Source of the DNA: Sphagnum compactum
Taxonomy: Eukaryota
Assembly: GCA_965153455.1 (NCBI GenBank)
Contig: OZ234494.1
Coordinates: forward strand, 4,216,001-4,280,000
DNA: 64,000 bases
Direction: 5' to 3'
The notes under the pieces: generated by a model
What the model was told of the DNA's origin: nothing
The model's input: the letters and a program-made list of their open reading frames with translations, nothing else
The model's database searches: none
Translations under genes and position numbers: made by a program
Shown: in pieces, positions 2,751 through 61,290 of the stretch
Numbering within the stretch: position 1 is the stretch's first letter
Layout of the letters: each line of letters begins with the position of its first letter

Positions 2751-5722
2751 TCAAAAATCAAGGGGAGAAGAAGCATTGGCTGGTCTTCCACACAGAAGGC
2801 CTGCAGCCCCTCCAGTTTTAGAGTCACCAGAAGTGGCATCAACCGGGGCAAATAGCAAGCGCTCCAGTACCAACTTCTTCCTTCGCACCACTTTCATAGC
2901 ATGCATTGCAGCCTCAGGAATGGTGGGCACCTATGCAATCCATTTTCAATCCAACCTTTTCATGTTATTCAATCCTATTCTGTCAAATTAGAATGCAGCA
3001 GAAGATGATGAGTAAAAATTGCTGTCAGAGCAGTTTGCAAGACTTGGATCCTGGTAGAAATACCATACATTTGAGTTTGGCTATAGGCAGTAAAGATCAG
3101 CTACATTGACCCAAATCTGGGTCCAGCTTAAATTCCACAAAAATAAACCAGGTTTGAATTAACTCAACATTTCCTGAACACAACCATTAGCATAACTTAG
3201 TGAAGTCTCTGTCCACTTGATGCAAAACTGCTGACCACAGAGGTGTATCCATCCACCTGGGTATTGATGGAAGCCAACTTGTGGATACGCAGAAAACCCA
3301 GAATATCTGGGTAATCCGTCAACATGCCTGCCATCTCTTTGTTGTCATCTGCCACCAACAATACAACAAGAATTGTACACAAGTCATGGCCTGCTTTGAA
3401 TTCTCCTAGTTGTTACTTAACATTCCAGCAAAGGAGCATAGATTTCCTCAACTTTATAGAAGCATGAAGCTTTGTGTTGCCAACACATCCCTCCATGGGT
3501 GCACTCTAAATCAGGTGGACTCCATGGGAAGAAAGGAGTTCACACGTATGGATAGAGGGCATGATATGTCCAGAATCTGAAACCCAACCGTGATTTGACA
3601 AGCCCATTCCAGGTTTGGTGGGAATTTCCACATCACTTCCTCGGTGCTGAGTGATGCCTCAAATAGTTATCAAAAGGTGCTTATACTCCAAACTTTCAGA
3701 CAAAGCAAATCAATTGCCATCTCATCCTGAGAGATCTGATGATAAACTTACCAAGAACAGCTTCGACAGAGATTAAAATGTCAGCAAGATGTTGCCATCG
3801 AATAGCCATCGAAGGTGTTAGAAGTGTTGCTGGGAAAGTGATTAATGCCACTGCATTAGAGACCCGCAGCAAGCTCTTTAGTGATTGCAAGAACCTCAGC
3901 ATTTCCCAATCCTGGTACATCCACCAAATTCAAATGCAAAGCTTTAGAATAAGCATAAGAAACTAAGTCATGGAATCCAAAATACCTATGGAAGGATCCA
4001 CCAATTTTGAAGGGACTTAGGCATGATCTGGCTGGCACTCAAGCAACATAGCTAACAGAAGAAGTCAATAGTATCCTCAGCTTACTGTGCATGACTGCAT
4101 GCATTGTGGAGCACACAGAGACTGAAATGCTAAACGTCCCACCAACTGACCCTCCCCTGCTGGCCTGCCCCCATGCCAAGTTCCAATGCTGCCTTTAAGA
4201 TAAAAACAGGGTTAAGAAGTCTTGGCATGAAAGCATTGTAGACTGCAGAACATGCATGAAAAACTCAATTGTATATTCCCACCAATACACAATCTGAGAA
4301 GTTGGCCAAAAGTCACAACCCAATGATTTGGTGTGAACATAGAACCCTATACCTTGCCAAGTTTGAGATGAAGACCCTGCAGTGGTCAAGTAGAGAATCC
4401 AAGTGTGCACCTCTCGCAAGACTTTCACACTTGATTGTAGCCCCAGTAAACAAAGAGCGCTCTGCTGGTTTGCGCAGATCAAAATCATTGCAAAACTCAT
4501 AACCTGCACAAGCATACAAACTCCACTTTATTATAAGCCACCACATTCTCAAGTTTAGACTTTGTAGTCTAATCCAGCAATGCAAATTGTTAGTTGTGGA
4601 TGTTGACTGGCAGTGGCCACTCTATTGCAAATACTGAAAACAAGCGGAAGGACAAGAAGGCAAAGGCTGGAAACCCTCAACAAAAGAAACCTCTTCTTCT
4701 CAATTTCCAAAGGGCAAAATAGGAATCAAGCACAAAAGCACACAATTTTGTCTTTAAACCAAAATGTGAGAACACTGAGATTGGATACCAATCTTGAGCA
4801 GTGAAGCAAAAGGTCCAGAATGCCGCCACCACAAGTACCTGAAATGGACAGAGGCAAGGAGGGAGAAGCTGGGGACCAGGATTTAGAGGCTAATTCTTGC
4901 TGACGATACCGCCGCTCCTCCAAAGCTTGCTGCTCATTGAGAAACCTTCGGTATTGCCATGCTATTCTCAAATCTCCCTGTCAAAACACAAAATTGTCCA
5001 GACCCGCAAAATCCAAGCCATCACCCAACCTGCCCTTAAACCCAAACCCTAGCCATCATTGGAAAAACGGACCAAGTGGTTTTGTTGTGGGCGTTGTTGC
5101 ATCATACGTACCTCTTTGGTGTTGTCGGAAGCAGCTCCACTTGAACGGCTAGCTATGGCTGGCAATGTACCAAGAAAAGCTTGTGGTGATGGTAATGGGG
5201 TTGCAAAAAAAAGGGGCTGAGAATGTACAAGTCCTTGTGCCATGAAGAAGCGCAATAGAGGAATATGATGTGGAGCTTCAATGTCCTCCATCACCATCAC
5301 CAAACCACCAACAGGAATCCCACCTCCCACAATCTGTGTGCCTTTTTAAGAAACAAAAACCTGCTCATAGTTTTCATCCTCACTAACACATCACATCTTC
5401 TCTCGAGAAAGAACACCATCTTCTCTTGAGAAAGAACACATCTTCTCTCACATCGTCTCTTGAGAGAAAGAAATGGAGTAAGAAGCAAGCAGGGAATAGG
5501 ATCCCCAAGAATCAGGCATCGAAATGCAAGAAAACAGAAACCGACCAAAGAAAGAGGGTTCCGAAGAGGAAGGATATGATCAAGATCGTCAAGTCCAGAG
5601 GACACGAGCGAGACGCCATGGCAGCCAGGCTTCGCTCCCACAGCTTGTACATAGCCTCCTCCTGCTCCTCCTGTTTTTGTAACCTCCCCTTTCCTCACAA
5701 AGCTTCTGACTTTGCTCTCCAT
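2751..5722 (-). CDS. ELP4: Elongator complex protein 4 (8 coding exons)
   Basis: ATG 5722 ([11 protein letters not shown]...[33 protein letters not shown]), [66 protein letters not shown]-terminal ...SSPLDF* (stop 2751-2753). Splice sites are consistent. Confidence 0.93.
5336..5577 (-). other. U12-type AT-AC minor-spliceosome intron (ELP4 intron 1)
   Basis: Minus strand: 5' end ATATCCTT, branch-like TTCTTAAA about 10 nt before the 3' end, terminal AC. Removal gives GAT C|AG ATT GTG GGA = DQIVGGG, in frame. Confidence 0.88.
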
Positions 5723-6014: not shown

Positions 6015-9000
6015 ATGCAAGACGATCAAGAAGAGAGAAGGAGATCATCGTCGTCGTCGTCGTCGTGCTTCGTGAAGCCTCCTCGCTTTGCAATGGAGGA
6101 ACCGACAGCACATCTGTATGTAGCCAACTGCGGACCTGCTGTAGGGATCCCGATCTCCGTCATCAGGGATGCTTTCAGCATGTTCGGTAGGGTGACGAGC
6201 GTTCTTCAGCCTGCGGGTGACAGTAGTGGATCTCGTGTCTATGTCTCTTACGTGAATGTAAGCGATGCGGTTGCAGCCAGGCAAGCCTGGAATGGAAGGC
6301 CTTGTGATCTTCTCCAAGGACGCGTGATGCTCATCCAGCATGCTGTTCCTCAACAGCAACAACCTCCTGTAAGTCAAGCTTTTCTCTTTTGCGACCACTG
6401 TATCTTTGGGGTAAAATGCTGCAAGCATGAAGAATCCAAAGAGGTTGTCGTGCTCAAAAAGATGCGGCAGCATAGCGGTTGATGCCAGAAGCAGAATTTC
6501 TAATTTGACTCTGATGGCAATCCATATGGCAAGGGGAGAACATTTGCAAAATGTTGTTCCAGAAATGCATCACAGCATGTCAAACACAGTGATGCTCTTC
6601 AAACCCTACATCATTTTGTGTGTTGTGCATCAAGGTGGCTGTTTGTTCTGTGTTCTCAGGATGATTTGTGTGTCTCGTTGTTGTTGTATTTTGTTGTGAC
6701 CACTGATGAGTTTTCCTCATTGAGATATTTTCAGGTCGAAGCACAGGTTCCTGTTTTTACATCAACGAAGGACATTGGCATTCCAGGGCTCTCCTTGTAT
6801 ACGGATTTCATCTCTCCTGAAGATGAACAGGTTTGTATGTATTGCACTTACAATTTCTGGAGGGTTCTTGGTTCACCATTGTTGACCTGTAGTGTTGACA
6901 AGTGACTTTGAAAGGTTTTTCGTGCAGGAACTGATTTGCTGTGTGCAGGAACTGTTGACTGCAGTGGATGCTGAGCAGTGGACAATTCTTGCAAAGAGGA
7001 GGGTGCAACACTATGGGTACGAGTTTTTGTACAAGGTCCATCTTCACCTCTTTTAGCGGTTGAGCTGTGGCACTTTCCACTTCTCTCAATTGTCTTAGGT
7101 TTATGAAATGTGTGATCTCTAAAGAGGTCAGATGACCATCCTCATCTTTATTCTTTTGGTGATGCTTTCTGCAGACAAGAAACGTCGACAAGAACCAGAA
7201 ACTTGGAGTGCTGCCTTTGAGTGTGGAGCCTGTTCTTTCAAAGGTTGCTTTGCTGTCTGAGATGACACATGCCAAGGAGCCTTCCCTTCCACTTGACCAA
7301 CTTACAGTGTGAGATCTGTTATGATTTTAACTAATTTTGAAGATTACATATTGCAATTTCCTCTCAGTGCCTCTATGTATGTGACACTATGACCACTTGG
7401 GCCTTGTCAGCAGAGGTTGCATGGTCTAATGTCCTGGTGATTTGTACTCTGTCCTGTTCTAAGAATATTGGCTGTCCCAACTTCTGAATGTTGGGGTAGT
7501 ATGTGTGCGCAGGTGAATGAATATCCCCGAGGTGTTGGCTTGTCTCCACACATTGACACTCACTCAGCATTTGAAGGATCTATTATTTCTCTATCTTTAG
7601 CTGGACCATGTATTATGGAGTTCAGAAAATACAAGAAGAAAACTGTGACTCCAGTGGATGAGATCTCACATGTACCTGATCTGCAAGAGATGTCACATCA
7701 GGAGGATGGAGTGAATGATCAAGAAGTTGCTAATCTCAGACAGCTGAATATGGAGATGGAACGAAAAGCATTATTTCTTCCCCAGAGGTCTCTACTCATA
7801 ATGTCTGAAGAGGCTCGCTATGCATGGCATCACTATATTCCCCATCACAAGGTATGGTTTGTGAATGCGGAAGGGACCACTGAATGCTGAAGTATCAATA
7901 TTTTGGAGTGCAAAACAGGGTCTCATACTGTCAATGCATCGATTCTGCATATTGGTTTTAAAGAAAACATTGGGTGTCAATTTGTTGCAGCTTGATGATA
8001 TTAATGGACAGATAATATCCCGAGGCCCAAGGCGTGTCTCCTTCACATTCCGAAAGGTACAAATGTGTGAAAGCTTATATTTTTGATACAACAGAACCCT
8101 TCATTCTCAGTTGTGCAATGATTCCATTACTTCTCTTCACACCTGAGGTGGCATGGCAGGTGCGGTCTGGACCTTGTACTTGCATCTTTCCAGAACAATG
8201 TGATTCACAACAGCCACTTCTGAGTACCTTATGTCCTTCAAGTGATGACATTGTACGGGAACCATGTACAACAACTTCTGAAGATGCCTACAACGAGATA
8301 TCTTACTGCACTGCCCTTTCCTGCAACTCAGAGACTGAGAACTCCAGTGAAAGTTCAAGTAAAACAGTTCCATCCTTGGTCAAGCCATTCAATTCAGTGA
8401 CTCCTGAGATTGAGAAAACGTATGTCCACAAGGTCTATGATGCCATTGCACCTCACTTCAGTGCCACACGGTTTGCAAAGTGGCCAAAAGTGGCGTTATT
8501 TCTTAACTCTTTAGAGGCAGGTTCAGTCATTGCAGATGCTGGTTGTGGCAATGGGAAATACTTGGGACTCAACCCCAAGTGCTTGTTTGTTGGATGTGAC
8601 ATCAGCCCCCCACTGGTGGAAATCTGTACTCAGCAGGGGCATGAAGCTTTAGTGGCTGATGCATTACATCTACCTTATCGTACTGGTTTCTGTGATGCTG
8701 CAATCTCCATTGCTGTCCTACATCATTTGAGCAATGAGGGGAGAAGAGTTCGAGCCATTGAGGAGCTTCTGAGAGTGGTCCACAAGAAAGGAAAAGTGTT
8801 GATTACTGTCTGGGCTGTTGAACAAGAAGACAAAAAGTTGCTGAGCAAGTGGACTCCTCTTACTTGCAAGTACATGGACGAGTGGGTTGATGATGTAGGG
8901 ACAAAATTGAAGCGAAACTTGTCAACAAGTTCTTTAGGAAGCATTAAGGAAGGAAGCAATGAGAACTTGAAGGAGTTGACCCTGGAGAAGGATTTGGTGG

Positions 9001-9789
9001 ATACACTGTCAAGTCCAAATTCAAGAACTATCTCCCAGAAATTGGACTTTCCCAGTCCTGAGAACCATGTCATAGAGGAAGGTGATTCAAGTGAGATGAT
9101 GTTTCAAGGTCAAGGATCGACTAAGAATCTTGGCTCTAGTGCCAATGATATGACGTGTCAGGTGGAGCAGCAAGAGTATTTTGTGCCTTGGCATTTGCCA
9201 TATCATCGTGCAGAAGTTGGTGGTGCTTCTGCTGCAGCTGTTGCAAGTGGGCTGGCAAAAAAAGATGACACAAAGAGAGCTGTTGTGTACAATCGCTACT
9301 ATCATTGCTTTGTACAAGGCGAGCTTGAGAGGTAATGATATTGTGGGCAATCACTAGTATTTGCATTGACAATGTCTCTCCTTGTCTTCTCTTTCTCTGC
9401 GGCCTACCACTCAGATGTTACTCCAGTTCTTAGTGATTGGTCAACCTGCATTTTATGTGACATTAGTCTCATGGAACCTTTCTCTACAGGTTGTCTTAGC
9501 TTCCACTGAACCACATTAATTTTCCCCTGTGGAGTTTGGTTGGTTCTGTCAAGAAGCATGCAATCCACTTTGGCAAATTGAGAAATTGTTTTACAGTTCT
9601 ATTCTCCTAGTAGCTTCCTTATAATGATGAAGTGTCTCTTGGAAAAGGGATGATTTGCTCAGGTTTGCTATCTAAGGATGTGTTGGTTGCTGTGGGTATT
9701 GTAGGCTGGTGTCAGGTGTACCAGGTGCAAGGATCATTGACCAATTCTATGACAAGTCAAATTGGTGTGTTGTGATTGAGAGGTTATGA
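6015..9789 (+). CDS. ALKBH8: tRNA wobble-uridine modifying enzyme: RRM + AlkB-type 2OG-Fe(II) dioxygenase + Cys motif + Trm9-type SAM methyltransferase
   Basis: HLYVANCGP (RRM), RRVQHYGYEF, DQLT|VNEYPRGVGLSPHIDTH, RYAWHHYIPHHK, RRVSFTFRK|VRSGPCTCIFPEQCDSQ, EKTYVHKVYDAIAPHFSATRF, DAGCGNGKY, ISIAVLHHLS, YFVPWHLP, YNRYYHCFVQGELER, last exon ...FYDKSNWCVVIERL*. The start codon is uncertain (5955, 6015 or 6093). Confidence 0.92.
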
Positions 9790-28078: not shown

Positions 28079-30727
28079 ATGATCCGTCCTTTGATAGAAT
28101 ATTGGCGGGACCAGAATTTCTGGTCCACACTGTCTGGATCTTTGCTCACACTCCTTTTCATGTGGGTTGCTTATACTGCTGTGGGGATGGTAGACAAGTT
28201 TGTGGTGACTCCCATGAGGATGAAGAGGGTGATGAATAGTCAGGGATTGAAAGGGCCACCCGCGAATTGGCTCCTGGGGAACATGCCTGACCGCCTTAGG
28301 CTTGAGAGTGCAGAATCAGAGAAGATTATGAAGACTGGCGACTACGATATTATGCCTCATGTTCTACCTTTTTATACTAGGAGTTGTCAAGCTTATGGTG
28401 AGTTTTCATGAAATCCCATCTCTCTCAGGTCTCAGAGCGCAGGACGTCCCTCTCAGAGCTCTATGTGATGGACACTAGTAGAGTTATCTGTAAACTCACC
28501 TGCTCTTTGGACCTTTGTTTGACCCTGTTTGTGATGTCCAAACTGGGTAATGGACATCACTAATTTTGACAAAACTGGAAGAATGCCCCCAGTTTGAGGT
28601 ATTAGGTGTATGGATAACTCTTGTACCATATAGAAAAGTTCAATCAGATTCTTGACTTGAGTAAATGTGAATGATGGCATGGCAGGAAAGACACATTTTT
28701 GGTGGCTAGGATGGGAGGCAAGGATCGTGATAACAGAACTTGATCTTGTCAAAGAAATTCTTGCAAACAAGAATGGTTGTTATGAAAAGTCTCAAATACA
28801 ACTTCGATTTCAAAGTCAACTTCTTGGTAAAGGGCTAGTGACAACTAATGGAGAAGAATGGGTTACCCATCGTCAAACTGTGACCCCTGCTTTCCATCAT
28901 GAAAAGATCAAGGTGCAATTTCGGGAACATGCGTGATGTATGTCCAAGAACAATACATAGGTGAAGGTTGCTTGCACCAAGGAGGTCCAAAAGAATAAAG
29001 AGGATAAAAGCAACAAACCTTTCTCATGTGACTCGGAAATACTTTAGATTCATTTGAAAAGGTTGAGAACACCACCAAGAGTCCTAAAACTAGTCCATCT
29101 TTTTGGCTTGTGTAACCTATAAGTTATGTAATGGATTCCATGACAAAGAGTGATATGGTATCATAGGTGCCTACCTATTCCTTTGATTGATGTACAGTGC
29201 AGAATCTAATCTAGATGTGAATTTTTTATTATTGATATAGACCACATGAATTTGAACATTTTACGTCGGACTATGACTTTGTGCACAGGTAATGGTAGCA
29301 GCAATTGCAAAGAGTGCATCATCAATGGCAGATGAATGGGAAACAAAAGTGATGGATGGTGGGGGCTGCGTGGAACTAGAAGTGGGTGATTACATGACAC
29401 GCGTGACAGCTGATATAATTGCACATACCGCTTTTGGAAGTAATTATGAAAGAGGAAGTAAAGTTTTTGATCAACAACTTGCACTCATCGATTTACATGG
29501 TCAAAGAGCCATGCAACGACTTGTTGCCATACTAGGATACAAGTTATCTCATTCATTTTTTTCTTATTCTTTGAAACTATTTTGATCTCGAGTAGTTTAA
29601 TTTGGAATGGACAAAGTACCAAATTTAACTTTGCTAAGTGGTCGTATGTACTTTAAGAACATAATTCATTCATATGATATAGTTCATGCAATGAATACCA
29701 TGAAAATAGTGAGTCTTCAAGTGTGCAAAAATTATGATTTCATTGTGTGGTGAAAATTCTAATGTAGTTGTGTATGTGTTTTGCAGCCTTCTTCCCACAC
29801 CATTAAACATTCAAATATTTGAGACCCAAATGGCAATTTCAAATTCTTTACAAGAAATTATTCAATCAAGGAAGGACATGGTGAATAAAACCAAAAAATC
29901 TTCATATGGAGATGACCTATTGGGTCTAATGCTCACTACGACATTAGAAGAAAATAATTCACAAGTTGAAAAGGCCCAATTTGACATGCAAGCATTGATC
30001 GATAACTGCAAGACCTTTTTCTTTGCAGGACATGGAGCTTCAGCAACTCTTCTCACATGGACCATGATGTTATTGGCATCCCACATGAATTGGCAAGAAC
30101 TTGCTCGTGAAGAAATCAAACAAGTGTGTGGGCATGGTGATTGTTTGCTTGATGCAAACATGCTCAATAAATTGAAAATTGTAAGTTGAAACTTTTTTCA
30201 CCCCATTTTGGAATTACCATTAGCTCACATCATGGACATATCTAATTGTGTTGTGTGTGTGTTGGATGTTGGTGTAGGTAAAGATGATTCTAAATGAAAC
30301 ACTTCGTTTATTTCCACCTTTTGTGGCCCTCACCAGACAAGCAAATAAAGATGTACAGTTAGGTGGTTGGGACATTCCTAAAGGATTGAGCTTACACATT
30401 CCCATACTTGCCATTCACCATGACCCTGACATATGGGGACCGGATGTACATGAATTCAAGCCAGAACGGTTTGTGAATGGTGTTGCCAAAGCAAACAAAC
30501 ACCCTTTAGCTTTTATGCCTTTTTCATTTGGGCAAAGGTTTTGTGTAGGGCAAGGGTTTACTTTAGTAGAAGCAAAATGTGTGTTAGTTGTGGTGCTTCA
30601 ACGTTTTCGCTTTCACCTCTCCCTCAATTATCGCCATGCACCACATCATAACATTACATTAAAAGCAAAGTATGGTGTGCCAATCGTGTTGGAATGTTTA
30701 TCCATGCCAAATCAATCTCAAGGATGA
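28079..30727 (+). CDS. Cytochrome P450, CYP72 clan (5 exons)
   Basis: N-terminal TM segment, QGLKGPP, GKGLVTTNGEEWVTHR, ADIIAHTAFGSNY, CKTFFFAGH, ETLR, KPERF, heme motif FSFGQRFCVG. The five-exon layout is typical of the CYP72 clan. Confidence 0.92.
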
Positions 30728-48383: not shown

Positions 48384-50866
48384 AAACAAGTAGGCCTAGT
48401 TATAACTATTTTATCTCATTTATTTCATATGTGCAATACCCTATGGACACATTGACAATGTAATATCCAACCCAATTCACACATGCATTACCCTCATCAA
48501 AGTAATGCAAATGCAATGGATTATTTTGTTGTTATGCAATACTCATGCCAAAATAACATATTTCACTTCATTTGATTCAAAAATGCAATTACTAGATTAT
48601 TTTGGTCTTATGCAATAGCTTCATGCCTAGGGTATATTTCATATCATCTAATTGAACAATGCAATACCCTATGGATACATTCACAATATCATATCCAACC
48701 AATTCAGCCATGCATTATTTTCATTAGAATGATGTAATACCTAAAGACAAAATACAAATATCATATCCAACCATATTCACATTTACATTACCTTCAGTAG
48801 GGTAATGCATATCCTCTAGACCATTTTGGTGTTTCACAATACCTTTAGGCCAATTGAAATTATTTCATTTTGTTTATTTCAACAATGCAATACCTTGAAG
48901 ACATATTGGAAATAACTTATGTTGGCCCAATGTGCAATACCTTAATATGGGTGTTAAGCAATATTTAATTGTGGCCTCACATAATACTAAAGTAAAAAAA
49001 TCTAGTTTAATTGCAATACATTTATTTGGTTTACCCTATTCCTATTAAGGTTATACGATACCATCTTGGGTGTAATAAGGTTAAGTTTGGGGTTTAAGGT
49101 ATTGCATGGACCAAAAAACAATCAAAGCCTATGCAATATTGTTATGAGTATATTAAGTTTAAGGATAGGGTTGATGAAATGAATATGTTTTGTCTTGTCT
49201 CGAGGGCATTGCATAACAAAAGTGTAAATGCAATACCCTCATCATGCATATATAAACATATCAAAATTCTAACTATGAAATAAAGGATTTTTTTATGATG
49301 AAAGTAATGCACAAAATCATGCCTTTAGGCTTTAATAACTTCCACAAAAATGTATAAACTATAATTACAATATCCTCATGTATTAACAATACATCCAATC
49401 AATTTTTTGTTCAATGCAAGATGCACATACACTATATATGGATCTTAATAACCTTCTTTATGTACAAATAAAATTCAAAACTTTTATAAGTAGATATATT
49501 TACATACATAAGTAGATACATTCATTTCCAAGGTCAATGGGTTATATCCATGGAGGTTAAATTAATCTAAAAATGTGGCATGGAAAATTCATGGATGCCA
49601 TATGCATGGTACAAAATGTGTATTAGTCCAAAAATGGAATGTCAAACTAATTGATCTCACCCTCACTCTCACTAGAATTCTCATTAATATATTTCAATGA
49701 TAATCCATTTGCACTCTGATAATGTGCCACGGCATTTTGTGCAAATTGAACATATTGTTAGGTATATATTTGCTAGCTTGCCAAAATTATCTTCACCAAA
49801 TCAACTGTGAAGGCCTCCTTGGTGGTATTTTGAATCCTAAAGTGGACATACACACAAACTAATGAGTATAATTTTGGAAACACATGTTTGAAACACAATA
49901 CAAATTTGAAGTGAAAATTGAATGTGATGGAACTTACTGGCCATGAATCATCTCCAATTCATGGTGATTACCAAGTCAAATGATCTCCTTTTCACGTTCC
50001 TTTTTAGATGAAGATCTTGTCCAATTTTGGCTATCCCAAACATCTCTAAATCCCTTTGCATACGAGACAATATTAGCCCAAATTAAACCGGCAAGATTCT
50101 CATCCCTCTTTAGTTTAGTCATTACATGGGGAGGATATCCCACACCCCATGTTGGAATGCTTAATAAAGTGAGCAACTTGAAAGAAGCGACTTTTACCAA
50201 TGTGCACATCAATTTCAATTTTATTCATAGTCCATTTTCCACAAGTGATCCCATTCACATGTGGCATGGGTCTTTGTTCGAACAATTGCCCAACACACAA
50301 AAGAGGAGTTTACCTTTTCCCACACACACACAAAAAAAAAACAAAAAGAAAAATAAAAATAAAAAACCCCAAAAACAGTATTGAGAAAAACAAAAAAAAA
50401 CCAACAAAAAAAGAAATAACTAATATTTTCAAAAGTTACACAAAACAAAAAATAAAATAAAAATAAAAATAATTAACAAATTAAAAAAACAAGAGAATTT
50501 GAAAAAACAAGAAAAAAAAACCAAAAGAAAAATTCAAACCCCCACAAAAATTATTTAAAAACCATTTCAAATAACAAGAAAAAATAAAAAAGAGATAAAT
50601 ATTAACTAGAAATAAAACCAAAAATATAAAACCAAAAATTTCAAGAACTACAAAAATCAAAAAATCAAAAAAAAAAAAAATCCAAAAAAAAACTAGGAAA
50701 AAATATTTTTTAAACTCTAAAAATATATGTATTAAGAAAACCAACAAAAACTAAAAAAACAAGATAGATTTTTTTGAATTACAGAAAATTAAAACAACAA
50801 ATAAAATAATAAGTACTGTCAAAAAATACTTTCACTTTAGAATTTTCCTAAGATTGTTTTGCCATT

Positions 50867-51180
50867 TGTCATGCCCGTATGCATGGCCTCATATATGACA
50901 GCCGGTTATGGGCATGCCACTCATGCCTTTTAGGGTTAATGTATGCTCTTAAGGTTAATATACCCTTAAGTTATTGTACACTATTAAGTGTTTAGGGTTT
51001 CAGCTTGTTGGCGGCTATATAAAAGGTCAAGTTCTTCCCTTCTTTTCTTAGTTTTTCTAGAATTCCTTTGTCAAAGAAAGTTTCTTCCATAGTCAGATTG
51101 GATTTCTAGATGTTCACGGAGGCCATTACATAGCCAGCGTTTACATACACTTCTTTTCTTTCCTTCTTTGCAATTTTAAT
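50867..51180 (+). repeat. Terminal repeat A1 (contains TATATAAAAGG)
   Basis: Direct repeat of 59042-59338; similarity ends at ...GCAATTTTAAT. Confidence 0.92.
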
Positions 51181-51257
51181 TCTTGAAAAACTACTCTCTA
51201 TTGCTTAGTGTTGAAAGCGGCAGATTTTTCTTGGTTGTGATATTTTGGGTTTCTTTT

Positions 51258-52600
51258 TAACAGCATCTGATCAGCATCGTCTATCCTTTGACATACCTAA
51301 CATGGATAGTCAAATGGAAGAATCAAAGTCGACATGATGATGGTAAGATTTAAATTCGGTAGGTGGCAAGGTGCATAGTTTTTGGAGTGATCCCGAATTG
51401 TGCGTTCATCAGCTCCTTGTAACTCCAACACACCTGAAGGCCTAATCGCCTTAATCCTCAAAATAGTGCGACCGGAAAAAGTGTTTAGAATATCATTAGG
51501 TTGCCGCTTGAAATACACAAAATCACCAACATCAAATTGTTTCACCTTAAGTTTGTAACTGCCACCTTGTGTGTGTGCATATCGTAAGGTGTCTCGATGC
51601 TATGCAATGGACAAGTTCTCCATGGCCATGGGCATAACCTTTTTGAATAGAGCAGCCCTCTTTGCGATGACCCTAGCCCAAATGGCTGGGGAGTCCAAGT
51701 CCACAACCTAGTCCATTTGAGCAATAATGGAAGAGGGTGGAATGGGATGTCTCCCAAAAAGTAGAAAGTAAGGAGAGAAATGAAACAAGAGGTGTTTGGA
51801 CATCTTGTAACCCATGGCGATGTAAAGTAGGGCCAAGTCCCAATCCTCTTTATTCCTAGTGAAGAAAATCTTCCGAAATACCTTCTTGCATGTCTGAACC
51901 ATCCTCTCTGCAAGGCCATCATGAACTTGGGGATGATCCCTTGAAGTTCGGCGATGGTCAATGAGAGCATGGTCAAGTAGGTCTTGGAATTCTCTTCTGA
52001 ATTCTGATCCTTGATCAATAAGGCACTCAGCACAAGCCCTAAACCTACTTAGGACCTATTGTAAGAAAGCCTGGCTGGTGCTGTGTGATGATTTGTCTGG
52101 CAACGCAACAAGCTCGACCCACTTTGAAAAAAGCTCAATCATAATCATGATGTAGACATTACCCCTGGAGGTTTGTGGTAACTCTCAAGCTAAATCACAT
52201 GACCAGCAATAAAACATGCCTTGAATAGGAAGTGGAGAAAGCGTGAGCTGTCGAAATGAGAAGGAAGTTTTCACTCTATCACATTGTTCACACCTAACAA
52301 TGATGTCTCAAACTTGAGCATACATACTTCTCCAATGGTAATGAGGAGCGAGAAGGCTATAAGTACGCTTAACTCCAAAATGCCCAAGCTCCGAGTGTAC
52401 CTTCTAAATAAGACCAGGCCGTTCATGTGGTGGAGGAACCACTTTGTCGCCTTGTGGTAAGCATCGGACGAGGTGATTATCCTTCCATGAGTAGCGTTTG
52501 GACCGATGTTGTATGTGATCCCGATGACTTGATGTAACTTGGGAGGGTATTCCCCATGCTGAAGATTCTTCAGAATGTCCAAGTCCTCCCATATATCCAC
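51258..52600 (-). pseudogene. DDE integrase with C-terminal extension and the first half of a PHD finger
   Basis: HSELGHFGVKRTY..HYHW (HHCC zinc region), core with DQGSEF-like and ERMVQTCKK segments, FSPYFLLFGRHP, FDVGDFVY, then YPC*VCQRIDDADQMLL. Frameshifted. Confidence 0.88.
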
Positions 52601-52779
52601 AATGGGATGTTCAACCAGGTTACATTGTAATAGTGCAAGATAACTAGATGCATAAGATACATGTACTGCTGGAATCTAGTCGAAGTCTTGCCTGACTTCT
52701 AAGAAATTTTCAAAGGTAGTGAGGGGTCTCTGCGACATGGTATCCGTGTTCTGATGTGTAATACCAGGTCAGTGAATAA

Positions 52780-54364
52780 CCTTGAACTCATATTCCTAAA
52801 CTATAAGCGCCCAATGAGCTAACTTACCAGTAAGCTTGTCGTTGGTCATCAACCATTTGATAGGCTAGTGGTCGATATACAAAGTGAACTCGGTGCCATA
52901 AAGATAGGGCCTGAAATCTATGATGACCCATACAATAGCAAGACACTCCCCTCGTATGAAGAGTAGTTGCTCTCGGCCTTGTTGTTGCTTCGAGATGCAC
53001 ATATAGGCGATAACATATTCCTTGCCTTTTTCATCAAGTTGGCCAAGAATAACACCGATACCAAAAGCATTCCAGTTAATGTGTAGAATGAAAACTTTGC
53101 TAAAATTAGGTCTTCTCAAAATGGGGAACTCTAAAAGATTTTCCTTGAGTGTGTCAAAAGCTTCCTGAGCCTCTTCACTCCATGTCCAAGCAACATCCTT
53201 TTTTAACAATGCATAGAGAGGATGTGCAATATTACTGAAGTCTTGGACATAAATCCTGTAGTAATTACATAGTCTGATGAAGCTCCTCAAAGTGTGAACA
53301 TTAATAGGATTGGGCATCTCCAAAATGGCTACTACTTTGGCCCAATGAGCCATAATACCATTTGGCAAAATTTTATGTCCAAGGTAGACTATTAAGGTGA
53401 CAACAAACTCACACTTTTTAGGATAGATCTTCATATTGACTTCGTGGAGCCTTTTGAATAACTCCTTAAGATGAGCTAAGTGTTGCAGGAGTCCCTTGCT
53501 ATGCACTAGGACATCATCTATGTATATTCAGAAATTTGCCCCTTCGAGAACCTGGTCCATGACTCGCTGAAAGAAGACAGGTGCATTCTTCAATCCAAAA
53601 GGCATCACAAGCCATTCCCACAACTTCTTGCTTCCATGGAATGTCGTTTCCTTACAATCCTTCGCAGTGAGCACAATCTGGTTGAAGCCTTGCCTCAGAT
53701 CCATAATTGTGAAGATGTTTGAGTCTCCAATGTTATCAAATAGTTCTTCAGGGATGGGCATGGGGTACGTGTCCTGAGGTGTAACCACGTTCAAAGGCCT
53801 ATAATCCTTACACATCCTTTTCTCAGTCCATAATCTAGCTGAATCCTTTTCGGTTAGCATTATTGTAACGGCTGCGAATTCAAAACTTGATGGCTGAATG
53901 AAACTAGCCTCATGGAGCTCTTTGCATCTTTCATCTACTAGTTCCCACTCATGCTTACTCAACCTATGCCTCCTTCGATAGATGGGCATCTCATCTGTAA
54001 GGTTTATAGAAAACTGCATGGTCTTACACCTACCTAAGTCTTTCATTGAGAATGCGAACACATTCTCATACTTAATTAGCAAATTTGTGACCTGGTGTCT
54101 CTCCTTCTTGGTGAGCTGGTTCCCCATAACGAAAGGGTAGTTGGAAACACATGGAATGGAGTTCGAAAGTGTGTTTGAAGAACTTGGTGTATTGGGTTTT
54201 CCACTATCCAACTGCGCAGATTCGTAGAAGGTTAAAATTATTTCTTTAAAAGCTGATGTACCTCCGGGTGTATCAGAAACAACTTGAGTCAAATTACATG
54301 GTACCTCCTCCCCCCCAACACTAAGAGTGAAATGTAGAGTGTTGGAGATAGGCAAGTGTACTTG
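52780..54364 (-). pseudogene. Ty3/Gypsy reverse transcriptase + RNase H
   Basis: RMCKDYRPLN, YPMPIPEELF, DLRQGFNQI, VMPFGLKNAPVFFQRVM, YIDD (just after an in-frame TGA), YLGH, FILH..GIGVILGQ, GECLAIVW, FRPYLYGTEFTLYIDH. Confidence 0.95.
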
Positions 54365-54369
54365 GTCAG

Positions 54370-55191
54370 TGACGCGCTCCCAAGTCCCTAGTTAGTCCCA
54401 AGATGGGGCTAACTTGCTCAAGTTGCGAAAAAGTGAGGGACTTGGGGCACGCTCCCAGCCTTCAACACTAAAAGGGGTAGAGGGGCGTGCTGAAGCCTCG
54501 GGATGGGACTAGGAAGAGTGACAAGCTTACTTACTTACTCGAACTTGCATCAAAACCAACCAACAAGTTGGTTAGATCACTTTCTGGGGCACCCTTGGTG
54601 CTAGGACAAGCCACGGGCAACTCTGGACTCACAAGACTCACCACGGCCCAAATTCGGGCGAAGCCACCACCTTCCCCCATATAGTGTTCTCTGCATTTTC
54701 CCAAGGCACCCGCATCCGAATGGCTTTTTGTCCCGGGACTCCCAAGGAGGAGTCCCGAAATTATCTCGGTTTGAACTCCTGGGACTTTGGAAGCTCATAA
54801 CTCCCAATTCAGACCTCTGATTGGAATGAAGTTTAAAATAAACTTGTAGCTCTTCTCAAGAGCTTTCCAACAGTGTGTTGCACTCCACCTGCACACACCA
54901 GGATCGGGTCAATTCCCGACTTTTAGTGGTCGGGAGTCAAACTGCCAGTTTGACTCCCAGACCTTCTTTCGACCATAACTTGTGTTGCAGATGTTTGAAT
55001 GGCTCATGCAAGGCCATTTTCGACATCTACACTTCAAGACCTTTCTAATGGTATAAAGAACACCTCAATGTAAGGTGTTTTAACCCTTGCAATCAAGCTC
55101 TGAATTTTTGGGAGTCCCGAAGGACTCCAAGTTCCCACTTTCGGGAGTGTGAGTTTCATCCTCACACTTGCCTCAAAGTGGGGTTGCGACA
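54370..55191. mobile_element. Nested solo LTR of a different family (822 bp)
   Basis: TGACGC...GCGACA termini, flanked by GTCAG and GTCAA (5-bp TSD, one mismatch). Removing it restores the host Pol frame (TTWHLD-QVHLPISN). Confidence 0.85.
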
Positions 55192-55279
55192 GTCAAGGTG
55201 CCATGTAGTTGCATCGCGAGAGTTGCAAGCTGATTGAATCAGTGTTGCTGTTGTGTACATTTGAAAGAGTACATAGATT

Positions 55280-56230
55280 ACCAATAACCGTGTAAGGGAG
55301 TTCAGGTCCATGCCTCTCCCCAGTAGAGCGTTACACTCCAATCTAGACACCTTGATGTGACTAGTAGTGCCAGTTTGGAACCCCATAACCCTTTCTCTTT
55401 CTTCTGGGTTTGGTTCATCCCAAGTGGCTGAAACATAACAATACATCAGGCTTGGTCCATCTCCCTGAAAGGCGTGTGCTCCTGGGAAGGAGACAAAGGT
55501 GGGCCAAGCACCTCTTGGTTTTCCTATTGTGTTCGCTAGAAACCAAGGAGGTTTCTCTTGCCTTGTAACTGGTTGGGAGGAGCTCTGATCATCCAATATG
55601 TGAGAAACCTGCAGGTTGGGATCTCTGATGGTGTATCTTAGAGCCAACTGCAGAACTGAAAGTGGTGCAAGGTTGATCCACTAGTTGCATAGCCGATGCG
55701 CATAGGAGCCGCATTATGCCGCATCAAGTAAGGGCGGCTCTCCAAGGTAATGTTTGACCAACGCGTAGTGCTCCTAGACTTTCTCCCTCTGGTCAAGCTA
55801 AGAAGGGGTGTTCTCAATTACATAACCAAGCGTAGGGAAAATGGATTGAGCCCAGGTGATCAATCGTACCATGTCCATGAAAAGACCAGATCTTGTGTCC
55901 CTCAAGCCTTCTCCAAATCCAGCCGTTGAAAATCCTTCACACTCCCAACCTGAAATGATGAGGTCCACGGGGCCAAGTAATTCCATATGCTTCTTTTGAA
56001 TTAGTTGTATGTCAAAGGACAAGAAAGTGAAATTGGCCTTTTAGACGATGGTTACAAACTATTGTCGAAATTTGGATGTGAGCTCCATCATATTCGATGC
56101 CACCACTTGCCTTGCAATAGGATCAATGTCTATGTAGAAATACCTCCGAACCACCATCCTTGACTGTAGTAGGGCTTCGAGACTTGTACCAATACCACTA
56201 AAGAGCTATAGTAATATAATCCCCTCCTTA
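55280..56230 (-). pseudogene. C5 cytosine DNA methyltransferase domain (DNMT3-like) inside Pol
   Basis: Hand translation, one frame: motif I ILL*LFSGIGT, II YFYIDIDPIAR, III DI, IV VDLIISGWECEGFS, V LRDTRSGLF, VI YVIENTP, VIII LDAA*CGSYAHRLCN*WINL, IX ERERVMGF, X LLGRGMD. Seven in-frame stops and no frameshift. Confidence 0.9.
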
Positions 56231-56639
56231 GGTAATGTCCAGGTGATGAGCTGACGAAATACTAGTTTAATCGGTTCGCCATGGCTCTCCATGTTTTCAA
56301 AACTAGACAGAACTTTGACTAAAAGTTCGTGGGCTACTTTGAACCGTTGTAAAACCTTTGGTCCGTGTTGAATGTCAGTAGGAACCACTTTTAAGCTTTC
56401 AGTAGCTTGGGCATAAAATGTCTCCTCTTCATCTCCCTTTATCCACTTGTGGCTAGTTTGTTGGATGTAAGAAATGGTGTGTGCTTCCTTGAGCATACAA
56501 TGGTGAGCCATAGGGCTATGGTTCCCATGTAAATCAAGGGGTATGTATCCCAGGTGGTGGCCATCAGTCTCCCAATCCACTCGGTAGTACGCATGCTCGA
56601 ACCAATTGTTAATTATGAAACCTGGTGGAAACAGGGCCT

Positions 56640-56930
56640 CTTGCCCAATGAACACATCGTAACCACTAGCATTGGTGATTAAACATCTGACCTGTAGGCA
56701 AAGCTCCTAATCTGTACCTTCATTGAAATTAAATGCAATCAAATCCGAGCTCTCCCCAAAAACCTCCTCTCCGCTCCCAGTAGCGGTGCGAATTTACCAC
56801 ATAGATTTTCGTAGTTTGGAGTCGAACATGACCATCTTCTTGGTGAATTGAACTCCAAGAATCACTGGTTGGGCACCTGTATCAAGAACTATTACTTTGG
56901 GTGTGTGTCCTCCCACTTGGATTGTTGACT
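56640..56930 (-). pseudogene. Retroviral-type aspartic protease
   Basis: VIVLDTGAQPVILG ... IRTATG ... YDVFIG, in the same frame as the DNMT. Confidence 0.85.
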
Positions 56931-57229
56931 CAATATTGTCGACAATGGCAACTCCGGTGGCGATGGAAGTTTTCTCACTAGGCACCACCTTCGGAAATGA
57001 ATGAGAGACTTTGTGGACAGAATGGCTATCCACAATGCCTTTGCTAAGTAACAAATCCACAAGTGAGGTGTTATTAGCTTCTTTCTGATATGTGAATATA
57101 GAATCAGTGGTAGGAGAACCCACTAGTTTAGCCATGCTAAAACTAGTGACCAAATTACGAACGCCATCTGTAACACATGAGCTAATTGAATGTTTTCACA
57201 AGGTGTTAGATGGGACCCCTGTAACATGT

Positions 57230-58080
57230 GGATCAGGGATTGGCAGAGGGCCTGATGTAGTGTTCAGGGTATCCTTTAGTACTGCAATTATGTCCCTGGT
57301 GCTTAGCTTCAAATTTTGAAAAACTAAACAAAGGTGTATTCACAAGCTTTTGCGCCACTTCACGCATTTGAAATTGGCACTCCATAAGTTGATTAGTGGA
57401 AAATTGTGTGTTTTCTTGATGTACATGTACTCCTAGGACACGAGAATTTGATGCCCTAGCAGCTTGTGGTGTAGTAGTTTCCCCCCCTGCCAACAAGGTG
57501 CGTTCTTCTTCCGTGTTGAAAGGACGAAAAGATTGTGGCATGACTGCTCGAGCTCCTCTAGCCCTGGTAATAGGACTTGAACCAGATGTGAGTCCATTAG
57601 TCTGAATTGTATGCACTCCAAAAAAAATACTCCCCAACCATGGCATCGTGTGGGAGGCCATAGAACAAGCTAAGAGGTCCCTTTCATGATCCTCGGTGAC
57701 GCCCAAAATCCTCAGAGAATGTTACTCATAGACATTCAATGCCTCATAGTGCACATAACAGGCTAGTTGTTTGAATGCAAACGCTTCGGTGTAATTAACA
57801 CCATACTTGAGCTCCAATTCACAAACCACAGTTGAGAAAGTTACCTTGAACTCCCTCAAAGAAATGATACCTGGCCTTCCGTTAAACTTCTCAATTCTCT
57901 CAGAGGAACTGTTGACCTCCATGGTGTATATGGGTGTAGAGGTAATGGCTTGTAGCGGAATATACGGTGATGGTGTGAAAGCTGGTGCAGCCGCAGGCGT
58001 ACCCCACTGATTTACCCCTCCAAATGGACTTTGATGTATCGTTGATGTAGTGTAATTTGAACCTGAATTCCTCGTAGGAG
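57230..58080 (-). pseudogene. Gag-like remnant (probably internally deleted)
   Basis: ERIEKFNGRPGIISLREFK (a KF-x-G gag-type start), located upstream of the protease. Confidence 0.55.
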
Positions 58081-58698
58081 TTGTATTGGATTACGGTGGT
58101 ACTGTAGACGCATGATGGTACTGTCGTGAAAAGCGTGAGCTCAAAGAAATCGGCTCAAATGATTGTGTGTTACTTCGTAGTTGAAAGTCCAACGGACGTC
58201 GACAGAAGTTAGAAGTCTACGACGCGACGGACGGTATTACGAGCGTGCGTGAACTTCACGACGATGGCGGGTGACAACACGACGAATGCAGCACTGTAGT
58301 TCGCTATGAATACCGCACTGCATCTTGCAACGCTGCGACTCGTGATCGACACTACGTTGCAACTCGCAACAGACGCCGCGTTGCAAGTTACGGTGTTGCA
58401 GGTCGCGACGAACGTCGCGCTACAAATCGCAACGCTGCAGCGATGGCGGATGTGACACTGCAACAATGGCGGACGCGATGCTACAGCTCGCAGCGTTGCA
58501 AATCGCCTAGAAGCAAAACTTTTTTTTTTTACTTGTCTTCATGTGTCTCTGCGTAAGAAAGAGAAAGAGCTTTGAAACCTGTTCTAAGATATGTCACTCC
58601 CCTGTTTAGTCTCGCTTTTCCCAGCTCTTTCATTCTCGGCTCTGTTGGTTGGTAGACGTGTAACAGCACAACCTCCCTCCAGTAGTCGCAACTCCAGC

Positions 58699-58800
58699 AA
58701 TTGTAATGGTGGATACCATCTATTCTGCCTCAAGTTGAAGCTCACTCAAGTTCCCGCCGGCATTTGGTACTGTTCATCATGTTCTCCTGCAGCACCTTGA
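58699..58800 (+). pseudogene. Second half of the integrase C-terminal PHD finger
   Basis: NCNGGYHLFCLKLKLTQVPAGIWYCSSCSPAAP*. Confidence 0.88.
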
Positions 58801-58850
58801 TTTCTACTCAAACCATGCCACACTTTTCCCAGCTCAAGTCTGGAGGGGGA

Positions 58851-59039
58851 TACATGAGAATTTCATTTTAGCCTCCTCTTGTGCATTGTATGTATATGTG
58901 CGTGCATCTCTTTTTGGTTGATTAATTTATACCTTTGACTGGTTTTAATCTTCTTACTTAGTAGAGTCTGCTATGGATTTACACCCTTACAACACTGTAC
59001 GTCACGACACTACACGTCACGACACTACACGTCACGACA
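58851..59039 (+). repeat. Terminal repeat B1, ending in 15-bp ACGACACTACACGTC units
   Basis: Direct repeat of 59338-59500; directly follows the purine tract. Confidence 0.92.
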
Positions 59040-59041
59040 AA

Positions 59042-59338
59042 TATCATGCTCATATGCATGGCCTCATACATGATGGCCGATTACGGGCATGCCACTCATG
59101 CCTTTTAGGGTTAATGTACGTTCTTAGGTTACTGTACGTTATTAAGTGTTTAAGGTTTCAGCTTGTTGGCAGTTATATAAAAGGCCAAGCTCTTCCCTTC
59201 TCTTGTTAGTTTTTCTAAAATTCCTTTGTCAAGGAGAGTTTCCTCCATAGTCAGATTGGATTTCTAGATGCTCACGACAGCCATTACACGGCCACCATTT
59301 ACATACACTTCTTTTCTTTCCTTCTTTGCAATTTTAAT
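59042..59338 (+). repeat. Terminal repeat A2
   Basis: Direct repeat of 50867-51180. Confidence 0.92.
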
Positions 59339-59500
59339 ACATGAGAATTTCATCTCAGTCTCCTCTTGTGCATTGTATGTATATGTGTGTGCATCTCTTT
59401 TTGGTTGATTAGTTTATACCTTTGATTGGTTTTTATCTTTTTGCTTAGTAGAGTTTGCACCTTTACGACACCATATGTCACGACACTACACGTCACGACA
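59338..59500 (+). repeat. Terminal repeat B2
   Basis: Direct repeat of 58851-59039; ends CACGACA. Confidence 0.92.
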
Positions 59501-61290
59501 CATCTAATTATAACTACCATCCAATAACAATACTATTATCTCCTATATTACACATGGTGTTCAACCAACATAGGATAAATTTATACCCTTAACATGGGAC
59601 TATGATACCATGTCTTATTTGTGATAATACTTGCCACATATATATCACCTACATTTCACTACTTAACGACGCAACCTATTTCATTGGTGCATTCCATTCA
59701 AAATGTCACATTCCATTATAGTGGAATTGGTGCAATTTAATGGAAACCAATTGGAATGTGAAGTGGATGCACAAACTACTGTAGTGACCCTTGATTGCAA
59801 AGGTGTATTAATTGGTTTGCACATATGCCTAAAGTTGAAAATCATTCATTTGAACATATAGTTGGTAATGTAATAGAGTAGCCTCATTGATGGAGTGTTT
59901 CTTTGGATGAAGTATAACATTTACATGTTAGTTTGGGTCAATAAATATTGTTAAGGAAAATAAATATTCACATGATCCAACAATTGTAAAAGACACTACA
60001 CAATAATATTACTACTCTTGATTGGCTAGCTATAATGATTGGTTCATATAGTTGGCTATAAATATTCTCATTTTATATTGTCTCATATTCTATGTGAAAC
60101 ATTTATAGGGGCCCAAATAAAGGGCATGGGTGAAGATATTCTTATATGCCTTAATTAATTACATTTTTTGGAAGTCACGTTTAATTAAAGTCTTGACTTA
60201 TCTTAATTTCAGGATTTTTTTACTTTTGAAAATTTCAAGATTTGCCATTTTTATGCACTTCCCATTTTTAAAAAAGAAAAAATGTACAAAGCTAACTTTT
60301 CATACAAAGATATGGTCCATGTTCAATATGTGATGAATATCATATTGCGTTAATTTAAATTGCATTAAATATTTCTATCATTTTTTTATTATGTCTGAAA
60401 CACTAAGGTTTTCTCTATTTTTGTCTAAAAAATTTATTATTTGGATTTAGTTTTATAAAGAATTAGGGAACATGCCCTAAGTTTTGATAATTTATGTTGT
60501 AATATAGCCACCACCACTTGATGAGGTTGGGGGTACATTAAAGATCTTCTCAAAATAATACTTATAAATAATTTATATTATTGTGGAAATGAAATCAACA
60601 AGGAAAGTAAGACTATGGTACGTTCACTACATGATAACATATATTGTTTGTTCCAAATTACTATAATGTGTCCAAAAATGTGAAAATTTGAACAACCAAA
60701 GGTTTAAAAATGTGCGTTGGGTCTAAGAAAAATGTATGCTACAACTATGTTAGAGAGCCCACCTGCCAAAGGAAGTAATAAGGAATACATGGAAAAGGTT
60801 TTAATCCCTTCCTATGTGGTTGAGGTTGAAGGTTTTTTTGTAAACCATAGGGCTATGCCACAAAGAATACATATGTAAGGATATATTGTTGTATGGATGT
60901 TACATGGTCTCTATTGCACCACTAATGTAAAATGTCATCATGAACTTTTGCTTTGGCTTTCTGTAAGCAAGAAAGCTTTTGGTTGAACATAAAGCATGCA
61001 CCTCGTCCTTGGCCCCTTATTTTGGGAATGCTCCCACCTTGAGGCTTTACCTTACACTTAATTTGTATAATTAATAACTTCAATAAGTACATAAGATTAA
61101 CACCTTCTCATTATAATGAAAGAAATATATATATTTTCAAGTTTAAGGAGTAAACCAACCTTTGTGTTGTTCCTTTGAATGAACCTTATCAATATAATAA
61201 AATCAATAACCAGATAGTTGGTTATTGATAATTGGTTTGATAACCTAGTTGATAATTGGGTCAATAATTAAAAAACCATTGGCCAACGTT

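Follow-up and report, generated by a model that had tools for sequence, protein, structure and literature searches.

Positions 50867-59500 of a 64,000-nucleotide stretch of the Sphagnum compactum genome (contig OZ234494.1; hereafter the window) hold a retrotransposon whose terminal repeats are split into two blocks, A and B, arranged as A-genes-B-A-B. Comparison with related loci showed that the normal integrated form of this family is A-leader-genes-B-A-B, bounded by TGTCATG...CACGACA ends and flanked by 4-bp target-site duplications. By its pol order, its DDE integrase, its TG...CA ends and its 4-bp duplications the element is of the Ty3/gypsy type, and its insertion is of the integrase type. 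Textbook long terminal repeat (LTR) retrotransposons integrate a linear complementary DNA (cDNA) that ends at the LTR ends. The moss family breaks this rule: although it has a DDE integrase and makes target duplications, it sits in the genome as a circular permutation of the cDNA predicted from its priming sites. The presence of this layout throughout the family, despite an ordinary integrase, suggests an unusual route into the genome.

In the window copy, A1 and A2 are 84.3% identical over 312 alignment columns (E = 1e-99) and B1 and B2 are 85.2% identical over 176 columns (E = 6e-56), and no further copy of A, B or the internal part occurs in the 64-kb window (coordinates of all features are given in Table 1). 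The element begins with TGTCATG at 50867 and ends with CACGACA at 59494-59500; the same two ends meet at the internal joint at 59033-59048, which reads CACGACA-AA-TATCATG. An initial annotation of this sequence had proposed the four blocks, with borders that our comparison reproduces to within 1-2 nt, and had described the outer ends, the internal joint, a polypurine-like tract before B1 and the lack of a TGG-starting primer site after A1, all of which we confirm. It had also remarked that the flanks of the window copy, CATT and CATC, form an imperfect duplication. They match at three of four positions, in a family that makes 4-bp duplications and has kept them perfect at seven of nine distinct sites with both ends visible (CCAA, GGTC, CCAC, AATT, AAAG, TCTA and ATGG; the two sites without a perfect duplication are the loci L014 and L046).

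Related loci were obtained by scanning metagenome contigs with the methylase piece of the window copy as query; 523 of 599 candidate stretches encode a relative of this piece, and the analysis used the best 80 loci. They carry A, the leader, the gag-to-integrase region, the 3′ segment and B on a single strand, arranged A-leader-genes-B-A-B. At their 3′ ends, 14 loci show B-A-B, two show B-A followed by a cut or interruption, 16 show B only, one is cut by the contig end and 47 leave this end unseen. Counted as distinct 3′ sites with a flank (n = 21), 12 carry B-A-B and nine carry B only. The 5′ end is visible in 29 loci, representing 23 distinct sites, and in all 23 unrelated flank directly precedes TGTCATG; B lies upstream of the 5′ end in none of them. 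The 52 copies of A fall into flank-A-leader (35), B-A-B (14) and B-A followed by a cut (2), plus a single A-B preceded by other sequence, at L079, that comes after nested inserts. Not one of the 52 stands in an ordinary LTR-internal-LTR context. No solo A-B unit was seen in the flanks of the 80 loci, a sample that was selected by the methylase gene and from which solo units cannot be counted. Independent insertions, which the initial annotation had proposed to compare, thus share the A-internal-B-A-B layout with 4-bp duplications at their TG/CA ends, and the copies with two ordinary LTRs that it had named as the contrary outcome are absent from the sample.

Further material came from contigs of four public sequencing runs, representing four organisms, aligned to window positions 50000-60500. 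The family is very abundant in these runs, with 10,250 to 95,082 matching contigs per run. In each of three runs, 84-95 contigs match up to a point just past the CACGACA of B and then diverge into varied, unrelated AT-rich sequence; the end of B is therefore a true element end. Joints between the end of B and the start of A recur in the run contigs (four, two and two in three runs). One contig of run X3 resembles an empty site, with 50865 joined to 59510 by 6 intervening letters, for a net loss of 8638 nt that equals the element (8634) plus 4; its support is weak (one contig, a shorter side of only 26 nt and a flank that is itself repeated).

Two of the related loci document how one form can arise from the other. 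L005, which ends in B-A-B, and L007, which ends in B only, occupy a common site with the same CCAA duplication and flanks that are 96-97% identical, and so at least the short form of L007 is a deletion derivative. Identity between the two elements is about 93%, and transitions make up about 90% of their differences. Transitions also dominate the differences between copies in three runs (X3, X7 and X13), where C>T and G>A changes are about twice as frequent as A>G and T>C; this excess would be consistent with methylated cytosines having been deaminated, the family itself encoding a methylase. Several loci (L037/L039 at 4427-4711, L026/L030 at 1-2510 and L041 at 354-2125) have, upstream of the remaining element, a 5′ A in opposite orientation, either alone or together with the leader and the beginning of gag. 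These parts are either further inversions within the family or head-to-head neighbours.

The coding capacity of the family is best read from L006, in which a single frame with four in-frame stops encodes gag-asp_proteas, DNA_methylase, RVT_1, RT_RNaseH_2, Integrase_H2C2 and rve domains and a C-terminal PHD finger. L003 also matched gag-asp_proteas, and in both loci the Pfam matches follow the order protease, reverse transcriptase, RNase H and integrase on one strand, with the methylase domain (PF00145) located between protease and reverse transcriptase. All 11 frames of at least 100 amino acids in L006 5000-14500 are on the plus strand. The D,D-35-E spacing of the integrase is readable in the L006 translation, and the best Protein Data Bank (PDB) matches of the integrase are Ty3 (Ty3 Gag-Pol, E = 5.5e-18) and prototype foamy virus (PFV) integrase (E = 4.5e-15). 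The initial annotation had suggested a search for a tyrosine recombinase: the integrase is of the DDE type, and no tyrosine recombinase matched at E ≤ 0.01 in a Pfam scan of 7 of the 11 L006 frames, the others being three frames that overlap longer ones and one upstream frame over A1.

For the methylase part the best PDB match is DNMT3A (E = 1.5e-8), with DNMT3B and 3C also among the best. Homologues of the window methylase that are 74-88% identical carry PF00145, and the close ones are named as Sphagnum magellanicum proteins. Relatives of the methylase-reverse transcriptase region occur in Calypogeia, Marchantia, Closterium and Klebsormidium; the Klebsormidium nitens protein P0057 is 34% identical in the methylase region, over 45% of the query (E = 7e-31), and closer relatives, as ranked by pairwise matches, are found in the other three genera. 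The PHD finger that follows the integrase (PF00628, E = 2.9e-10; L006 13550-13702, window 58700-58790; PDB matches WSTF and ATXR5) might serve in targeting. P0011 and P0013, two 'hypothetical proteins' of Sphagnum magellanicum that have PHD domains, are pieces of such elements.

The borders of the repeat blocks coincide with predicted priming sites. A G-rich tract, a run of 5 to 10 G that in a few copies is broken by a single different base, ends the 3′ segment in 36 of 36 aligned rows and directly precedes (A)TACATG, the start of B1, in all 35 rows that show B1; in the window the corresponding GGAGGGGG adjoins B1. Within A, TATAAAAGG or a near variant occupies the same position in 27 aligned copies, and AGTTTTTCTAGAATT lies about 33 nt downstream. 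The exact reverse complement of AGTTTTTCTAGAATT is AATTCTAGAAAAACT, which straddles the border between A1 and the leader. This 15-nt complement is perfect in L003, L006, L014/L022, L028 and L065, and in L031 both sides have changed with pairing kept. In an RNAalifold analysis of 15 copies, columns 1-15 pair with columns 131-145. We predict from this arrangement of 5′ end and primer site a self-priming mechanism of the Tf1 type. By eye, no tRNA-type primer site is evident after A1, which has no TGG start there; no tRNA comparison was run. With the predicted primer site after A, the polypurine tract before B and a TATA box within A, reverse transcription should produce an LTR that consists of B+A. 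The initial annotation had proposed B+A as the functional LTR, and at the level of the family this assignment holds.

The two internal joints behave differently. B1/A2 consists of CACGACA, 2 nt and TGTCATG, bar point changes, and the spacer is 2 nt long in 15 of 15 aligned copies; its letters are GC (7), AC (5), GT (1) and AA (1); L001 and L004, being one locus, enter this tally once. The length of A2/B2, by comparison, varies exactly at the border, with five variants among 12 distinct sites (Table 1) and three forms among three members of a single subfamily (L048, L062 and L070). Such a pattern would be seen if the U5 end and the U3 start (the ends of the unique 5′ and 3′ regions of the LTR) were joined afresh in every cycle.

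We consider integration of a circularly permuted cDNA to be the best-supported mechanism, with a probability of roughly 0.55. Transcription would start about 30 nt past the TATA box in A1, with a predicted RNA 5′ end at AGTTTTTCTAG, near position 184 of A1, and would end inside A2. The first 11-15 nt of this RNA would fold onto the complementary site just after A1 and prime minus-strand DNA in a Tf1-like manner, and the G-run adjoining B1 would prime plus-strand DNA. Under the standard rules of reverse transcription the resulting cDNA would be B-A-genes-B-A. The integrase would then act on the palindrome-like CACGACA-NN-TGTCATG inside the LTR and not on the cDNA ends. Joining of the U5 end (the end of A) to the U3 start (the start of B), through a 2-LTR circle or by end joining after integration, would create A2/B2, and opening of the palindromic site of the upstream LTR would yield A-genes-B-A-B, a circular permutation of the cDNA. 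The shorter A-genes-B copies would be products of later recombination between B1 and B2.

Several points weigh against this mechanism. The transcription start, the poly(A) site and the use of the primer are predictions from sequence. The self-priming helix shows one compensatory pair, in one locus, several copies carry mismatches, and 8 of its 15 bp are palindromic. The variation at A2/B2 could come from replication slippage in an AT-rich spot (ATAT), and the nine B-only sites could in part be primary products and not deletions. The 80 loci are metagenome contigs of one related moss group, in which some loci were seen twice; all 80 are decayed, with no intact copy among them and a longest open frame of 847 amino acids. 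The polarity of the permutation is unexplained: a 2-LTR circle has two identical B/A sites, and random cutting would also predict A-B-A-genes-B, a form found at 0 of 23 distinct 5′ ends, against B-A-B at 12 of 21 distinct 3′ ends. We speculate that the site in the upstream LTR is used since that LTR becomes double-stranded first, with the free A-end and B-start being joined afterwards. The initial annotation had proposed a 2-LTR circle opened at CA/TG. Such an opening is a candidate route that fits the topology and the variable A2/B2 joint; with symmetric cutting it would also predict the A-B-A-internal-B form, the one absent from the 5′ ends.

Two further ideas were discarded. In a minus-strand reading, A+B would be a standard LTR with TG...CA ends and a polypurine-like tract on the primer-site side; joints in the run contigs and the 80 loci show that the coding part is inverted only in the window copy. 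Direct reverse transcription to a linear A...B-A-B, by second priming at B/A, read-through RNA or rolling synthesis, yields, by reasoning from the standard rules, B-A...B-A, A...B-A, B-A...B or whole-unit dimers and in no case A...B-A-B.

A different route to the same layout, which we think unlikely though the strongest competitor, is the one proposed for DIRS, PAT and Ngaro elements, in which missing parts are restored from an internal template. The RNA would run from inside A1 to inside B2, B1/A2 would serve as the template for the outer portions that A1 and B2 lack, and the DDE integrase would insert the finished A-genes-B-A-B DNA, linear or circular. PAT and Ngaro elements have this layout in the passages available from PMC7192593, as does SymbioDIRS-Dnmt3 in those from PMC5890265. 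Restoration accounts directly for the single polarity, and B1/A2 does bring the two termini together across a spacer that is constantly 2 nt long. However, this route needs neither a G-run before B1 nor a primer-site-like complement after A1, yet the repeat borders coincide with both, and a copied A2/B2 would be expected to be as stable as B1/A2, but occurs in five variants at 12 sites. DIRS, PAT and Ngaro elements are not known to make an integrase-type target duplication on insertion. In the moss family target duplications are present, and no tyrosine recombinase matched in the scanned L006 frames.

It is less probable still, and in our judgement improbable, that the short form A-genes-B is the primary product, made when the integrase acts on a linear B-A-genes-B-A at the internal site of each LTR or when it cuts a 1-LTR circle, and that a second event adds the B-A-B tail in a minority of copies. 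B-only ends are common (16 of 33 classifiable 3′ ends and nine of 21 distinct sites), and B-only copies bear perfect duplications (AATT at L031/L033, ATGG at L077). Against this, an A-genes-B element lacks a downstream A, and with it the 3′ copy of the terminally repeated (R) region, so that the family could not be maintained by it; the coexistence of both forms at the common site of L005 and L007 fits loss of A-B; and no known second event adds A-B with a constant 2-nt spacer at at least 12 sites. That the layout is a single local accident of the window copy (rearrangement, tandem insertion next to a solo LTR, autointegration or misassembly) in an otherwise two-LTR family might suit a copy that is rearranged in other ways by an inversion, a nested LTR and deletions, but this explanation, to which we give practically no weight, is refuted by the same layout at at least 12 independent sites with their own flanks and duplications, by the 0 of 52 A copies in an ordinary LTR-internal-LTR context and by the contigs of four runs from different organisms that support the layout.

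Table 1 Features of the window copy at 50867-59500 and variants of the A2/B2 joint in the family
Feature	Position	Strand	Basis or count
Left target-site duplication CATT	50863-50866	.	matches 3/4 of CATC at 59501-59504
A1, left terminal block, begins TGTCATG (integrase end)	50867-51180	+	repeat comparison and related loci
TATA box TATATAAAAGG within A1	51016-51026	+	TATAAAAGG or near variant at the same place in a 27-sequence alignment
AGTTTTTCTAGAATT, predicted genomic-RNA 5′ end and self-primer, about 33 nt past the TATA box	51050-51064	+	reverse complement of the family border between A-end and leader
Predicted self-priming primer-binding site AATTCTTGAAAAACT (one mismatch against the family form AATTCTAGAAAAACT)	51178-51192	+	RNAalifold: columns 1-15 pair with 131-145
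5′ leader, first 79 nt, still in family orientation	51181-51259	+	related loci and breakpoint alignments
Inverted internal segment: rest of the 5′ untranslated region, gag, protease, DNMT, reverse transcriptase, RNase H, integrase up to the PHD finger	51260-58699	-	
Integrase remnants: zinc-binding, DDE core and C-terminal parts; stops and frame shifts	51297-52675	-	
Reverse transcriptase and RNase H	52865-54369	-	RVT_1 (E 1e-12 and 1e-9), RT_RNaseH_2 (E 8.5e-22)
Nested solo LTR of another, far more abundant family; TG...CA; flanks GTCAG/GTCAA	54370-55191	+	
DNMT3-like C5 cytosine methyltransferase domain, two frame pieces	55192-56040	-	PF00145, E 3e-9
Protease and gag remnants, about 1 kb absent relative to other copies	56206-58090	-	
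End of the pol frame (remaining PHD finger, stop) and 3′ untranslated stretch, family orientation	58700-58841	+	
Polypurine tract GGAGGGGG directly 5′ of B1	58842-58849	+	G-rich tract in 36/36 family rows
B1, ends CACGACA, one extra 15-nt unit relative to B2 and other copies	58850-59039	+	
2-nt spacer AA between B-end and A-start; the joint is a palindrome-like site	59040-59041	+	
A2	59042-59338	+	repeat comparison
B2, right terminal block, ends CACGACA (integrase end); A2/B2 border is the presumed U5/U3 joint	59339-59500	+	
Right target-site duplication CATC	59501-59504	.	
A2/B2 joint CAAT+ATACATG			4 sites
A2/B2 joint CAAT+ACATG			4 sites, window included
A2/B2 joint CAATT+ATACATG			2 sites
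A2/B2 joint CAAT+A+ATACATG			1 site
A2/B2 joint TAAG+ATACATG			1 site

The window copy is an old, decayed member of this high-copy Ty3/gypsy-type family, with many stops in its frames. All of its coding frames within 51297-58090 are on the minus strand, unlike the related loci, which carry the internal parts on the same strand as A and B. The 7.4-kb inversion is private to this copy. Opposite-strand joints (51259/51262 to 58699 and 51264 to 58704) occur in all four runs, in at least as many contigs as those that skip the nested insert; run contigs were required to extend 31 nt across a breakpoint to count as bridging it. A 576-nt contig of run X1 with one mismatch extends 29 nt over the 58699/58700 breakpoint, slightly below this threshold, and supports the inversion as real in that run. 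One breakpoint lies in a (GTT)n stretch of the 5′ untranslated region; the other falls within the sequence that encodes the PHD finger, with a loss of about 10 nt. Both carry the short word CAGCA. The initial annotation had placed the polypurine tract and TATA box on the plus strand. This placement is right for the family; the genes of the window copy lie on the minus strand, and the placement is right only owing to the private inversion. Minus-strand coding, the inversion itself, the nested solo LTR and the C5 methyltransferase domain are features beyond those that the initial annotation described.

Further damage has accumulated inside the inverted segment. The integrase piece at 51708-52055 remains 85% identical to the rve-bearing part of L006. 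The 822-bp insert between reverse transcriptase and methylase has TG...CA ends and the flanks listed in Table 1 and is therefore a solo LTR; its insertion is recorded in the runs by joints that skip 827-829 nt and by 49-104 loose ends before 54370, and its depth is about tenfold that of the host element in four runs. Copies of this LTR also lie in or close to many related loci, the window insertion being in the reverse transcriptase/DNMT region. Loss of gag sequence is indicated by a query gap at gag positions 407/408 and by loose ends of run contigs at 57608. At the termini, the end of B is built of tandem 15-nt units (CGTCACGACACTACA), three in B1 (58996-59039) and two in B2 (59470-59500) and in other copies, and B includes a (TA)n(TG)n stretch that varies. 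Directly upstream of the insertion there is an A-rich tract of low complexity, 500 nt long (50320-50820), and 50000-50350 is itself repeated in the runs (summed depth 439-1611).

Elsewhere in the window, plus-strand host gene fragments at 7441-9335 encode a 2OG-Fe(II) oxygenase (E = 1.6e-11) followed by Methyltransf_11 (E = 2.4e-14), a combination that we take to be ALKBH8-like. A plus-strand frame at 29713-30189 carries a cytochrome P450 domain (E = 1.2e-15) and is probably an exon of a host gene.

The layout described here bears on two questions. It becomes testable how an integrase of the retroviral type can have an internal site, or the junction of a circle, for its regular substrate, and the answer bears on how DIRS, PAT and Ngaro elements came by their split repeats. 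The combination of a DNMT3-like methylase with a PHD finger is also of interest for the interaction between transposons and host chromatin. More tentatively, at somewhat less than even odds, we suggest that a green-lineage clade of DDE-integrase elements, in Sphagnum and in liverwort and charophyte relatives, regularly integrates via a palindromic site inside the LTR, that junction cleavage and the joining of cDNA ends are obligatory steps, and that the clade has converged on the split repeats of tyrosine-recombinase elements. If this is true, cleavage of an end-to-end junction would be the normal and obligatory route in this clade, as opposed to the side route that it represents in retroviruses.

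The closest counterpart in the literature is KnitGypsy-Dnmt3 of the charophyte Klebsormidium nitens, for which the legend of Fig. 4c in de Mendoza et al. 2018 (PMC5890265) notes a DIRS-like repeat structure together with Gypsy domains. To judge from the text passages of that paper, this element resembles the moss family in having a Dnmt3-like methylase within a Gypsy-type polyprotein and DIRS-like repeats. Its host is a charophyte and not a moss, and the same passages describe neither target duplications nor primer sites and offer no mechanism or analysis of the joints. The view in the initial annotation that A-B-A-B is typical of Ngaro and PAT elements and not of Ty3/gypsy is incomplete in the light of this legend. 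In a literature search, the term 'KnitGypsy' was found in PMC5890265 only, and 'Gypsy-DNMT3' only there and in a 2026 preprint (10.64898/2026.05.21.726589), which, in the part available, merely mentions the 'Gypsy-DNMT3' of streptophytes; titles and abstract openings of the matches listed revealed no Gypsy element with a split-direct-repeat layout. As far as these partial texts go, the layout has thus been noted in print for a charophyte element, in a figure legend and with no mechanism in the text, and an element of this kind has never been analysed before. New here are the finding that the layout is obligatory in a second, very abundant family, in a moss; the coincidence of the repeat borders with the plus- and minus-strand priming sites; and the behaviour of one of the two internal joints, which is that of joined cDNA ends.

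PAT and Ngaro elements, including SymbioDIRS-Dnmt3, whose repeats are written 'A-coding region-B-A-B' in PMC5890265, share with the moss family the order A1-internal-B1-A2-B2 and the abutting of the termini at B1/A2, and according to the passages available some of them also carry a methyltransferase. They encode a tyrosine recombinase and no DDE integrase, whereas the moss family has rve and Integrase_H2C2 domains, with no recombinase matched. It further differs from them in its 4-bp duplications at TG...CA ends and in the reverse transcriptase-RNase H-integrase order of Ty3/gypsy elements. Self-priming is described for Tf1/Sushi and for the plant Tcn1 clade in the part seen of Neumann et al. 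2019 (PMC6317226). Like these elements, the moss family has no evident tRNA-type primer site, and its RNA 5′ end, as predicted here, is complementary to sequence just after U5; unlike it, Tf1/sushi-type elements possess LTRs that are ordinary and identical. In the moss family a PHD finger takes the place that the chromodomain has in chromoviruses. Finally, the retroviral integrases of PFV and HIV-1 cleave the palindromic LTR-LTR junctions of 2-LTR circles, which yields ends competent for integration, according to the parts available of PMC1180852 and PMC1905944. There, as in the moss family, two integrase ends stand head to head in a palindrome-like site, and PFV integrase is among the best PDB matches of the moss enzyme. 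The retroviral palindrome, however, is the U5/U3 joint and its cleavage a side route; the moss palindrome lies inside U3, the U5/U3 joint is separate from it, and the permuted form is the regular state.

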